A stretch of DNA of 64,000 bases from Felis catus. Its lineage: Eukaryota. The notes under the pieces were generated by a model. The model was not told the origin of the DNA, made no database searches, and saw nothing but the letters and a program-made list of their open reading frames with translations. Made by a program: the position numbers and the translations under genes. The stretch spans positions 82,400,001-82,464,000 of the forward strand of contig NC_058368.1 in assembly GCF_018350175.1 (NCBI RefSeq). Reading direction: 5' to 3'. Below are positions 52,701 through 57,990 of the stretch, in pieces (positions within the stretch are counted from its first letter, which is position 1; every line of letters starts with the position of its first letter).

Positions 52701-54680
52701 ACACAAGATGCAAGGTACAGGTTCAGGTGAAGGGTTTGCAACCCAGCTGACCTTGAGGGACGACCCCGAAGTAGCTGGTGTAACCTGGGAAACTGGCAAA
52801 TGAAGAGAAGGATGTAGTTACTATTGCCGCCAGGGACTGGCGAGGAGGACAGGATCCTGGAAAACCACGGACTGCTTTCCTATGAAAGAAGTTCACAAGT
52901 CTCTGCTGTAGGGACGAGGACCCCTGGAGGCTGGGACGGCCATGACCTCCCTTGCAGGAATGCGCCCAGAGAGCACTGGCTGAGTTAAAATCATGGGTCC
53001 TGAGCAAACACACTTTTCCTTCTCTTGCCTTTGTGTCAGATGTTTATAAATAAAGTTACGATTAAAACATAAAAGCAATTAAAATCAGCGAGGGGATTAA
53101 TGCTCTGGGAAGAAGGATACTGTGGCTAACACACAGTGTGTCCAGGCAGCAAGGAAAAGCCAGGTCAGGCCCTGTCGTTCTGGGCAAGCACAGCCGGGAG
53201 TGGCCCCGGGGGTGGACAGTAGCTTCAACTCTTCTCACCTGTGAGCCCCCTCCCAGGGTCTCTGTACAAGGTCTGGGGGCTGGGGAGCCCCACTGCACCT
53301 GTCACACAGTCCTGCAACCGGGCAGGGACCTGCTGGCCAGGCACATGGCCCTGTTGCTAGGCCTTCAGAAATCCTCTGCAGGGGATGACTCATTGGGCCA
53401 CCAGGTTCGTCATTAAAGAAACCGGAAAACAGGCCAGAAAAGACCAGCAGTGCTGCCCTTACAGGAAGATTGAACCGGTGCTGCTATTGACGTGGAAAGC
53501 AACGGCCCTGGAGAAAACAACCTTCTTAGGCCCACCCCACGGCAGCAACTCGCACAAGAATTGCTGGGGGCCGGCCATCTCCTCAAAGCTCGCTTCACAA
53601 CGGCCTGGAAAGGGTTGTCAGGTCAAATGATGAGAAATACCAGGGAAGACAAAGCCTCTGTGGGCCCCACAGAGCTATCCATTTATTGCACAGTGTTTAT
53701 TTTATCCCAGAATTCTTTAGAAGAAACATTCCGGTAGAACCAAAAACGTCTGTGAAGTCACCCTGACCTCATGGTATAAAGCCCATCCGATTTGCACACT
53801 GGCACTCTCCAAGGGCATCTGCCCCAGGACCGATACACACGCAGGGTCCCGTGGGTCCCCTCCCGGGGAGGGCAGAGCTCCTGCACAGATGCTGAGTCCA
53901 CACGGGCTGTTCCCTGCTGTTGGCTGCCTGCCGCCCCACACCCCCCAAGGACGTTATTAATAGAGTCACGTCCTGAGCCAGCACAGCCAGGCTCCCAAAG
54001 TCACCAGCTGCTTGTAAAGAGCACCTTGCTGAAGGAGGCCTCCACAGGGCACCCTGGCGGGGGGGCCCCCTGACCCCAGCCCTCCTGCCCACCCCTCCCA
54101 CAGATGTCCTGGTCCTATTTCCGTTTTGGCTTTCGGGACCTGCTGTGGCAAGCGATCCCAGAGGCCACGTCTTTCATTTCCTCTTTCAGGCACACAGTCC
54201 ATACCCCTTGGTGAAGATCTAGGGGCTGCGGGCAGCCCACGCCTCACTTCCGGTCCATCTAAGGGGGGAGGCAGGAAGCCCTTTAGGCTTTTACCCACTG
54301 TATTCCTCTTAAATCTTAAACACTGAGGAGGTGTTGCCTATTGCACATTTCCCTGAAGGCTGCTGCCTTCAGAGGCCTGCTGACCAAGGTCATGGGGTCT
54401 CAAGAGGACCCATTCACGCACCTGCTTACAGCTGTGGGAGCACCTGGGGTAACCAGGAGAGATGGGGCCCAAAAGGTGTGCAGGAACCTTGACGGTGGGA
54501 CCCAGGGCCCCCCGCCCCCCCCCCCCCCCAGCACTCCTGACTGGGAGACCTGACTGCAGCCCCGGCACCCCTAACACCAAGGCTGTCTGCGCAGCGGGGA
54601 AGGAGCGACCCCGTGAGGCTCCCCAGCAGCGCGCACGGAGGATGTTCCCAGACCCCAGCAGCGGGACTGCGCGCGCTCAC

Positions 54681-54847
54681 CGTCTCGGGGTCGTTCTCGA
54701 ACACCTCCCGGGCCTCCTCCTGGCTGCACAGCTCCTCAATGCATTCCCTCTCCAGGTGGCCCTGCTTGGCCTCCTCGAAGACCTGGTAGGCGCGTCGCTG
54801 CCGGGGCCGCAGGAACTGCGCCGCCTCTCGCGCCCGCAGCATCACAG
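54681..54847 (-). CDS. GAS6: GAS6 exon 2, propeptide (RQRR furin site) and Gla domain [37 protein letters not shown]
   Basis: 167 nt, gggcag| ... |gtgagc; Gla signature with 11 Glu residues in the mature part. Confidence 0.97.
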
Positions 54848-55099
54848 CTGCCCGGACGCGGGCGGGAGGACGACGCCGGGAGAGAGCGGGGACGGAACGG
54901 GGACACGCCGTCAACCCCGCCCCGCACGCGCCGTCCTCTCGGCCGCCAGCCCCCCGGGGACGCGGCTGCGGCGTGCGGGGCCCGGGGGCGCGGGGAGCAG
55001 GCGCCCGGGGCGTGGGGGGAGAGCGGAGGCGCGGGGAGCAGGCGCCCGCGGGGAGGGGGGGCTCTGGGGGGGGGCCCGGGGGTCCTGCCCGGTACTCAC

Positions 55100-55178
55100 T
55101 GTGCGCGGACTCGGAGGCCAGCAGGAGCACAAGCAGCGCGGTGCCCAGGGCGGCGGCGAGCGCGGGCGGCGGCGGCAT
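55100..55178 (-). CDS. GAS6: GAS6 exon 1 coding part, signal peptide [26 protein letters not shown]
   Basis: ATG in ccgccATG context, hydrophobic core, donor |gtgagt; 79 nt, phase 1. Confidence 0.93.
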
Positions 55179-55337
55179 GGCGGGGCCGGGCCGGGGCGAG
55201 CGCGGGGCGAGGGCCGGGGACGGCGACCGGGCCGGGAGCGCGCGCTCTCAGAGCGCCCGGGAGGCCGTGGCGAGCCGCGGGCGCCGCGGGGCGGTGGCTC
55301 CGCTCATCCCGTGCAGGCGGCTCTGAAGGTCACATCC

Positions 55338-55371
55338 CGGCGACGGCGGCGGCGGCGGCGGCGGCGGCGGC
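55338..55371. repeat. CGG-CGA-(CGG)9 trinucleotide repeat at the GAS6 5' end
   Basis: Read directly; pure run 55344-55370. Confidence 0.92.
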
Positions 55372-57990
55372 ACCTCGGCGCTCGCGGCCGGGGCCGGGGC
55401 GGGGCGCGCGGGCAGGACCCGGCTCGGGGCCGCGCGGGGGCGGGGCGCGCGTGTTCCCAGCACCCACCCCCCGCCCCCCCGCCCCCCCGCCGGCTCCCAG
55501 CACCACCCCCCGCGCCTTCCAGCACCCCCACCCCACCCCGCCCCGCCAGCTCCCAGCACCCGCCCACCCAACCCACGCCAGCTCCCAGCACCCCCCTCCC
55601 CCCACCCCAGCCCCGCGGAGATCAAAGACCCCGGGGAGACCCGTCACCCCACCCGGACGACGTGGCCACTTAGAGCGGCGGGTGCGTCCAGGAGAAGGAG
55701 ATTCAAGTCGATGGCCGAGCCTGACCTGGTCGCGGGTAAAAGGAAGCAGCAAACAGCCAGGTGCCAGGTGACCAGGTGCCGCCTGACCGCTCACCAGACT
55801 GAACCCTCGTCCCGCCCCACCACCGCCACCCGCACCCCAAATCTACCGCACCCTTTTTGGATTCCCCATTCCCGAGCATATTTTCTCAAGACTTAAAACC
55901 CCCAAAGAAAGGATAAACTGAGGCCAGACCAAATCCCAGCGAGGTCCAGGGAGCGAGAGGAGATTATTTCCTTTTGTAACCTCTGTCTTCCATAATGATG
56001 AATGACATTGAGGTTTCCCAGTAAATACTCAGGCTGAAAGCAACATTGTGCTTCTTCTCAGAGACCAAGACTTTCTGTCTCTCTCTCCGGAGTATTTCGC
56101 AAATTCAGGGGCCAAAAACACACAAACAAACAAAACCAAAACGAAGCGGAGGGCTCCCCTGGGGGACTGAAGCGGCAGCGAGGCTGGCAGGGGCCTGGAC
56201 ACAGCCCCCCCAACCCCCACCCCGCACGGTGGGTCACTGTGGTCGTCGTGCCGCGGGCTCTAGGCCCGAGTCCTGACCTCAGATTCCCCTGGCCTGCTGT
56301 AGTGGGAGAATGAAGCGTTGATGCTGGTCGATTCCCTGAGGTCGTGGTTTGAAGGTGGGGTTAATGAGCATTAACACGTTAAAGTCCGGGGAATGAACAC
56401 TGGTGAGAAAGCTCTTCAAAGGGAATGCGCGATTTAATAGGTAAGTCCTCTGCACCTGTGATCTGCAGTTGAGCTGCTCTCCCACCTCAGCCAGCAACGG
56501 ATGAAAGCAGCCTGGACGCCTTGGGCTTGGAAAGAGCATTTACTACATTAATTTTCCTGCTTGTTGTTCTTAAGGAGAACCTGTTTCAAGAACCTGGGTG
56601 GGGCAGTAAATTCTTCAGTGTGTATTTACACAGATCCTGAATTAATTAATCGTGCGTCTCTTATTTCCTAGGATTCTGAACCAGGTGGCCCGCGGATGCA
56701 TTTCAGGAAGTATGCAAACTCCTACACATTGTTTGCAGTGGCTTTCTTCTTTCCTATTTGTGTGTGTTTGGCCAAGAGAGTTTACAGAGTTCATGGGACT
56801 CTCAGAGTTGGATCCCAGTAAGAGTGAGTGTCATGGCCTCTTCCTGTCCCTCTGGGAGGGTCCGTGCTGAGTATGGGCTCAGTGCTTCAGCTGACCAGGC
56901 GTTAGCATGATCCCAACTGGAAGGAGGCTTTCAGGCCCCCTGACCTGTCAGCCTGGACCTCAAGCCCCTCGCTGCTTTTCCCGGTTTATCCTTTCTGTTG
57001 ACTTGGTATCACAATAACCCCAACAGCACCCATTATGAAGAGACTTGCTTTAATAAAATGCATTCACACACACTTGCTCACCTGAATAACTGTAGAATAC
57101 AGGAAGCAAATATAGGGAGCGAGGGAGGGTGTCTGACCCAAGCTAACCCGAAGACCAATGCAGAAACTTTGCTTTAAGGCAGAGAAAGAAAATGGATAAG
57201 CAACAATTTGGATAATGCTTTCTGAAATTGGGGAGAGTCGTCAGGCACTGTGTTATACACCTCGAAGTAACCACGATTAAGTAGCTCATTTTTACAAGGG
57301 GCAGGTTAGACCTAGTGCTGTGGACACCTCGTACGGACTGTCAGCCAGGCTGTAGTCAGGGGCTTGTCTTGCCAAGGCCAAGTGGGATGAAAGTGTGGGG
57401 GTTAGGGTCAAAGTGCGGGTGTCAGAAATGAGGTGTTGGTGGGGAGAGAAAAATTCTGCCTTTCCTTCCACCATCTCTTCTGTGGGTGATGATTTCAAGG
57501 TGCTGAGGCTGTTCATTTATGAATCTGCTCAATAAATCGATAAATGTGAGTTGAGTACTTGCTGTGTTGTCTTAAAAGGCAGTGTGCTGGGCGCTGACCA
57601 AGCCAGTCATATTGGGTTTTCTTTGTTTTTAAAGCAGGTTTATTGAGGCATAATGGAAATATAATAAGCTAGATAATAAGTTTTGTGGTATCTATGATGA
57701 ACGTACAGACCTGTAAACCCACCACCACATTCCTCTAGAGCATACCCATACTTTGAAAACACTTCCTCATGCCCTTTGTTAATCCCTCCCTCTTGAGTGT
57801 CCCTGCCCCACCCTCACTCCATCCCAGGCAAAATCACTGGCCCACTTTGTCACTATAGACTAGTTTGCTCTTTTTGGAATGTTGCATAAAAGGAATCCTA
57901 CAGAATGTGCTTTTTTGTCTGGCTTCTTTCACTAGGCAAATTCACTTTCAGATTCACCTACATTGTTGCACATAGTTTATTCTTTTTTTA

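Follow-up and report, generated by a model that had tools for sequence, protein, structure and literature searches.

What do two upstream AUG codons do in the leader of GAS6: do they switch translation under stress, encode a peptide that matters, extend the protein by read-through, ride along on promoter DNA that is kept for other reasons, or simply hold GAS6 synthesis down? GAS6 is the ligand of the TAM receptors AXL, TYRO3 and MERTK and has roles in the clearance of dead cells and in tumour drug resistance; roles in myelination (PMC5770689) and vascular calcification (PMC12504744) have been described as well. The reading that we favour, with rather better than even confidence, is that the two elements act as a constitutive, peptide-independent brake on GAS6 output via leaky scanning and re-initiation.

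The analysis covers a stretch of 64,000 nucleotides of the Felis catus genome, referred to below as the window, whose minus strand carries a GAS6 locus of cat-family type. GAS6 entries are the named best matches, the N-terminus with its signal peptide is the same as that of Felis catus P0036 and Leopardus geoffroyi P0022, exon 2 (starting at 54847) codes for the Gla domain, and later exons can be located by tblastn as far as about 22,200. Within 55868-55179 (minus strand), the only ATGs are the two considered here, uATG1 and uATG2, and the leader around them is laid out as follows.

55338..55371, minus strand: (GCC)11 repeat abutting the start-stop on its upstream side (Tandem Repeats Finder: period 3, 11.3 copies, 93% matches)

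55330..55335, minus strand: start-stop ATG-TGA (uATG1), read from the sequence, with the human counterpart ENST00000327773_1_40

55308..55329, minus strand: gap of 22 nt between the start-stop and uATG2 (28 nt from ATG to ATG)

55248..55307, minus strand: upstream open reading frame (uORF) of 19 codons plus TGA (uATG2), orthologue of the human c13norep74

55179..55247, minus strand: C/G-rich spacer of 69 nt from the uORF stop to the main ATG (41 C, 22 G, 5 T, 1 A)

55100..55178, minus strand: GAS6 coding exon 1, with the main ATG and the signal peptide, up to the splice donor (N-terminus match and tblastn)

The uORF opened by the ATG at 55307 encodes MSGATAPRRPRLATASRAL, and its TGA ends at 55248. 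The main ATG at 55178 lies 129 nt downstream of uATG2, whose frame it shares, and 151 nt after the start-stop, which is in frame +1 relative to the CDS. For the start-stop, the uORF, the main ATG and their frame, the coordinates given in the initial annotation are all exact. Each of the three AUGs has a G at -3 and none has a G at +4, the base there being T at uATG1 (55335) and A at uATG2. Without its TGA, the start-stop would open a frame of 115 codons that runs, out of frame, across the main GAS6 start. Length variation of the adjoining (GCC)11 repeat is possible. Further downstream, intron 1 (54426-55178, minus strand) is open in frame, such that unspliced RNA would hold an ORF of 250 codons, and the Logan protein P0010 reads into GAS6 intron 1 likewise; this openness is probably an effect of the high GC content. 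Exon 2 opens with an in-frame ATG at 54842.

How much of this layout does composition explain? In 20,000 dinucleotide shuffles of the leader, two ATGs arose in 11-12% and a start-stop in 0.1-0.2%, the latter being a post-hoc test; genome-wide, start-stops are carried by 1417 of about 19,000 human genes, according to PMC13338717. That the uORF falls into the CDS frame is a 1-in-3 event. The spacer lacks stops, as the initial annotation had pointed out, and this is true on the sequence though forced by composition alone: with one A in 69 nt, all of 20,000 shuffled spacers were free of stops in any frame, so that the stop-free spacer is no signal. The elements stand above chance through their conservation and through human ribosome footprints, not through their frame.

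Human catalogues already contain both elements, and the uORF is on record for mouse too. Bohlen et al. 2020 list the human ATG-TGA as uORF number 1 of ENST00000327773, with a length of 1; it is one of 9982 uORF stops at which 40S footprints were recorded in HeLa cells (PMC7494916). It starts at nt 40 of this transcript, i.e. within the annotated mRNA. The human uORF corresponds to the Ribo-seq ORF c13norep74 of Sandmann et al. 2023 (PMC10032668), and Ji et al. 2015 report it as translated based on RibORF and 3-nt periodicity (GAS6:NM_000820:73:132), paired with a mouse Gas6 uORF of equal length (NM_019521:93:152; PMC4739776). Compared with c13norep74, the window peptide is identical at 16 of 19 residues. 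Presumably, c13norep74 and the entry of Ji et al. may go back to one detection, GENCODE having pooled the 2015 data. The human ATGTGA and a human uORF peptide had been put forward in the initial annotation; the former is listed for ENST00000327773 and the latter agrees letter for letter with the catalogue entry. Ribosome occupancy at both uATGs, initially named as a check, is found in human data (40S footprints and RibORF periodicity, respectively), and human is the only species for which footprint data on the start-stop and the uORF were found. The start-stop ranks 6475 of 9982 and is no DENR-dependent hit in DENR knockout cells, and GAS6 is missing from the 15,725-row translation efficiency (TE) table of the same study (PMC7494916). 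Among the articles listed by searches of the open-access literature, there was no functional study of either GAS6 element and no mutational reporter of uATG1 or uATG2. GAS6 is unnamed in the main text of PMC13338717 and in that of a CRISPR screen of 978 uORFs (bioRxiv 2025.07.07.663426).

Sandmann et al. label c13norep74 ‘primatomorpha - young’, with 0 mass-spectrometry studies and PhyloCSF scores of 1.31 in primates and -140.82 in mammals, a measure that is weak on short ORFs (PMC10032668). Yet, judged from the sequences compared here, the uORF is older than this label implies, as it is intact in cat, whale, mouse and a further mammal; the label was assigned by BLAST significance, a threshold that a peptide of 19 residues may fail to reach. 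The additional orthologues come from a phmmer search with 31 codons ending at the uORF stop, which required neither the Met nor the end point and, as a similarity search, favours similar sequences. It returned four matches, two of which are orthologous: P0124 from gray whale and P0125, a Logan protein from a further mammal. The other two, P0122 and P0123, are unrelated repeat proteins, and P0076, whose start looked uORF-like at first sight, is an unrelated gene-model start. P0124 and P0125 end exactly on the last uORF codon, with the Met and the 10 preceding codons in register and free of indels, and the locus tag of P0124 neighbours that of the whale GAS6 piece P0007. P0124 (J1605_009325) is annotated as a gray whale hypothetical protein of 407 residues; from its sequence, it looks like an artefact of gene modelling, with a reading frame that crosses the GAS6 promoter and finishes in the uORF. 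The codons over the start-stop read GCDLQ in both proteins, which fits ATG-TGA but is no proof of it, meaning that in whale the start-stop is implied by the peptide only; it is otherwise common to cat and human. Stop and length of the uORF are kept in all five species seen (window, human, mouse, whale and P0125). The conservation of the uORF ATG and stop that the initial annotation had asked about is thus present in human, mouse, whale and P0125.

Is it the peptide that is being kept? A sequence-dependent arrest peptide or functional micropeptide, with repression depending on the amino acids, would agree with the fixed length of 19 codons, with the nature of the cat-human differences—three of three are Ser/Thr swaps, the chance of all being BLOSUM-positive amounting to 0.4-0.7% in a post-hoc test—and with a human-mouse Ka of 0.144, Ks of 0.325 and Ka/Ks of 0.444 (PMC4739776). 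However, the Ser/Thr-only pattern was lost, being outweighed once whale and P0125 were added: five of six differences between these and the window are BLOSUM-negative (Thr-Ile, Ser-Pro, Arg-Ser). The Ka/Ks of 0.44 corresponds to about 5 synonymous versus 5 non-synonymous changes and is not significant (p about 0.16, back-calculated), and neither the mammalian PhyloCSF score nor the mass-spectrometry count given above favours a selected peptide. Identity to the window is 16/19 in the uORF of both P0124 and P0125, and 9/10 and 7/10, respectively, in the 10 untranslated codons before it; a flank as conserved as the uORF itself points to constraint at the nucleotide level. The initial annotation had proposed an Arg/Pro-rich stalling peptide, an idea that finds no footing here: Arg and Pro make up 6 of 18 codons versus 7.6 expected from GC, another frame of the same DNA is richer in them, and peptide-specific conservation is not seen. 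A short-protein search yielded no candidate, and a metagenome scan with the uORF motif returned four loci that all match over 26 bases only, in GC-rich DNA, and were dismissed as chance. On the sequences at hand, then, start, stop, length and spacing of the uORF are conserved and the peptide is not singled out, which leaves an amino acid-dependent function highly improbable.

The shared frame had also suggested that read-through of the uORF stop could give rise to a GAS6 protein with 43 extra N-terminal residues. The cat genome does have the in-frame layout and the open spacer, although the latter follows from base composition. The classical leaky read-through context is TGA-CTAG, whereas the uORF stop reads TGA-GAG, and this stop is kept in all species seen. 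An extended GAS6 occurs in 0 of 68 homologues with an orthologous start among the matches listed (two of the 68 carry one stray extra residue), the uORF motif in 0 of the best 120 of 460, and a dedicated read-through query retrieved only three ordinary felid GAS6 entries (E 0.09-1.2). Moreover, human uATG2 would lie at -80, out of frame and with 20 nt from stop to start, when a published oestrogen response element (ERE) is used as a ruler: with its 13-base core assumed to be centred, the right half-site starts at -79 (PMC12504744). This half-site fits the Met-Thr start of the human uORF. It cannot be the TGA of the start-stop because that would make the uORF run into the CDS, contrary to the human records. 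An extension of GAS6 by read-through is therefore extremely improbable, and the in-frame layout in cat is, from this comparison, most likely a lineage accident.

The main rival to the brake is that the region is kept as DNA—as a CpG-island core promoter with nuclear-receptor sites—and that the start-stop and the uORF are translated by-products with little effect on output. The features that bear on it are the following.

55379..55399, minus strand: projected 5′ end of the GAS6 mRNA, inferred from the uORF positions in human and mouse RefSeq transcripts (nt 73 and nt 93)

55324..55332, minus strand: TGACCTTCA, putative motif of the nuclear-receptor extended half-site type, which begins on, and thereby overlaps, the TGA of the start-stop

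55302-55314, minus strand: degenerate ERE-like palindrome over uATG2, with 4 mismatches of 10

The consensus behind TGACCTTCA is, we take it, the ERR/NR5A-type extended half-site; motifs of this kind number 6 in the window versus 2.4 expected. The projected mRNA 5′ end falls in a TATA-less CpG island, with a CpG o/e of 0.75-1.16 across 54601-55600, and with GC boxes present and TATA absent in 55336-55700. The GAS6 ERE is said to go back to work by Mo and colleagues in 2007. One later article locates it between -89 and -72 relative to the GAS6 start codon and reports ER-alpha ChIP for human smooth-muscle cells (PMC12504744); another confirms that GAS6 has an ERE (PMC10779100). By position and sequence, the palindrome at 55302-55314 likely corresponds to this human element, whose right half-site would be the ATG-Thr junction of human uATG2. 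Promoter-level conservation would also agree with flanking codons that are as conserved as the uORF, and with the absence of GAS6 from the 1466 uORFs translated >3-fold above their CDS in the table of Ji et al. (PMC4739776). Against it, the ERE-like site of the window is a poor match, as its mismatches show, and its TGAC core requires Met-Thr, whereas the window has Met-Ser and P0125 Met-Pro, yet the ATG is kept in both. A uORF stop 60 nt downstream and a uORF length that are both kept in five of five species are further points against it, and upstream AUGs generally lower output when the leader is scanned (PMC4739776 and PMC13338717). Nuclear-receptor motifs over both AUG regions could thus explain part of the conservation, while by-products of little consequence seem unlikely. 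As a corollary, promoter-reporter mutants of the GAS6 uATGs would be confounded by the overlapping nuclear-receptor motifs.

Other observations concern the sequence further upstream and the comparison with mouse. Five clusters of G-runs of the G-quadruplex type, together with GC boxes, lie in 55474-55654 (minus strand). A block at 56303-56416 (minus strand), some 1.1 kb before the start codon, aligns with residues 240-277 of gray whale P0124 (45% identity, E 3e-5) and is probably a conserved non-coding element. Primers for the mouse leader have no clear counterpart in the window, the best agreements being 13/21 and 15/19 at several sites.

RNA structure offers little in the way of an explanation. 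Compared with shuffles, the leader as a whole is no more stable (z +1.59) and 0 of 20 overlapping 50-nt windows fell below z -1.7; a start assisted by a hairpin is accordingly unsupported. Three of the 20 windows, around the start-stop in 55311-55380 (minus strand), are less stable than shuffles (z +2.7 to +3.0, uncorrected), and uATG1 may sit in an open RNA stretch according to this folding.

For the favoured brake, leaky scanning plus re-initiation would be the natural mechanism. Scanning ribosomes would be diverted by both elements, lowering GAS6 synthesis whatever the sequence of the peptide. With contexts that are middling at uATG1 and uATG2 (G at -3, no G at +4), leak past each would be partial. 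Subunits leaving the start-stop would have 22 nt before uATG2, which is likely too little for initiator tRNA to be reloaded; most of them would therefore pass over the uORF and start again at the main AUG, 151 nt on. Complexes that leak past the start-stop could be caught by uATG2 and would then re-initiate more poorly at the close main AUG, 69 nt from the uORF stop in the window and about 20 nt as inferred for human. The remainder would leak past both uATGs, and the sum would be a steady reduction and no switch. Both stops may have been kept since their loss would create frames that run into the CDS. As the skip would be independent of stress, no ATF4-type induction is predicted.

Published work is consistent with several of these steps. 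In reporters, start-stops repress, leak via a U at +4 and respond little to stress (Rendleman et al. 2026, PMC13338717); re-initiation after start-stops depends on distance, and the start-stop of ATF4 raises bypass of its downstream uORF (PMC13338717). According to a review, the 40S subunit is blind to AUGs until the ternary complex has been reloaded, and DENR-MCTS1 might, as its authors speculate, make a minimum distance unnecessary for re-initiation after start-stops (PMC5972666); this would weaken the skip step. The absence of GAS6 from the >3-fold uORFs would, on this account, mean that the brake may be weak.

Does the leader respond to stress? The initial annotation had suggested leaky scanning or re-initiation loosely like ATF4. 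Its mechanistic core has stood in so far as the elements are real and occupied in human, while the ATF4-like switch, the stalling peptide and the read-through have fallen away. In HEK293T data of Sidrauski et al. 2015 (PMC4341466), normalised with 27 of the first 59 rows of the source data chosen for their higher counts, GAS6 TE under tunicamycin relative to untreated cells was 0.95 (Poisson 95% range 0.57-1.48), versus 6.4 for ATF4; with 13-56 footprint reads per sample, these low counts are compatible with a rise of up to about 1.5x. ISRIB left GAS6 TE at 1.01 of untreated cells, with footprint counts in the same range of 13-56 per sample, and the article's lists of changed genes do not include GAS6. 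Basal GAS6 TE was 0.39 compared with a median of 0.67 for the 27 reference genes, five of which are lower, in a set picked for high counts.

A chronic condition points the other way. In eIF2B-epsilon R191H astrocytes, newly made GAS6 was up (-log p 2.05; Wisse et al. 2017, PMC5770689), with a mean ratio of 0.98 which, read as log2, is about 2-fold, and only Fndc3c1 mRNA changed in a qPCR primer panel that included Gas6. This rise without mRNA change is not predicted by an always-on brake and is the main argument for regarding the pair as a low-ternary-complex sensor, through which GAS6 synthesis rises as eIF2B activity falls, loosely like ATF4 or like single-uORF stress-resistant mRNAs. However, Gas6 reporters with promoter plus leader or with the leader only were not increased in the mutant cells, in an assay that the authors call insensitive (PMC5770689). 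Their leader construct was designed from NM_019521 and probably contained the uORF, because the latter starts at nt 93 of that transcript. Furthermore, of the 72 up-regulated proteins, 38 pass through the secretory pathway, and PROS1 was up too (PMC5770689), so that an ER effect may lie behind the rise of astrocyte GAS6. Together with the flat tunicamycin and ISRIB ratios and a uORF that, unlike ATF4 uORF2, does not overlap the CDS, this makes a sensor function very unlikely. Quite unlikely, too, is a composite in which the start-stop lets subunits bypass the uORF as on a skip lane, the pair adjusts GAS6 to chronically low eIF2B activity, and the same bases are nuclear-receptor DNA sites. If it were true, this arrangement would account for the roughly twofold GAS6 synthesis seen in vanishing-white-matter astrocytes, and the dual-coded element—an ERE on uATG2 and an extended half-site on the start-stop—would date back at least to the split of cat, whale, rodents and primates.

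Comparison with known systems helps to place the steady brake. The closest relatives are the human c13norep74 and mouse NM_019521 uORFs, which belong to the same gene and, as in the window, have 19 codons, start with AUG and end before the CDS; the window differs from the human uORF in being in frame with a 69-nt spacer, the human one probably being out of frame with about 20 nt. Start-stops paired with a longer uORF, as in PSPC1, share the AUG-UGA, the G at -3, the GC-rich flanks, the downstream uORF and the association with a signalling gene (PMC13338717). DENR-MCTS1-dependent short uORFs are unlike the human GAS6 start-stop, which, as noted, was not a hit (PMC7494916). Like the ATF4 leader, that of GAS6 has a start-stop upstream of a longer uORF, and in both the main AUG is probably reached by re-initiation; it differs in that ATF4 has a separate short uORF1, after which comes a uORF2 that runs out of frame into the CDS, whereas the GAS6 uORF ends upstream of the CDS and follows its start-stop after 22 nt. 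Conserved-peptide and arrest uORFs are exemplified by AMD1, with its MAGDIS peptide, and by the CHOP uORF. The GAS6 uORF resembles them in being short and of fixed length across mammals and differs from them in showing no peptide-specific constraint. The GAS6 leader thus likely fits a start-stop plus an ordinary uORF brake, the tests of an ATF4 switch, an arrest peptide and read-through having failed as far as they were run.

The layout is a common one, considering the 1417 human genes with start-stops, most of which have a further uORF (PMC13338717). What is added here is modest: the orthologues in gray whale and P0125, an age of the uORF beyond that implied by its catalogue label, and a reading of GAS6 that speaks against read-through, a selected peptide and an acute stress response. 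If both upstream AUGs do cap GAS6 output, they would offer a handle for raising GAS6, and variants of its 5′ UTR could matter there.
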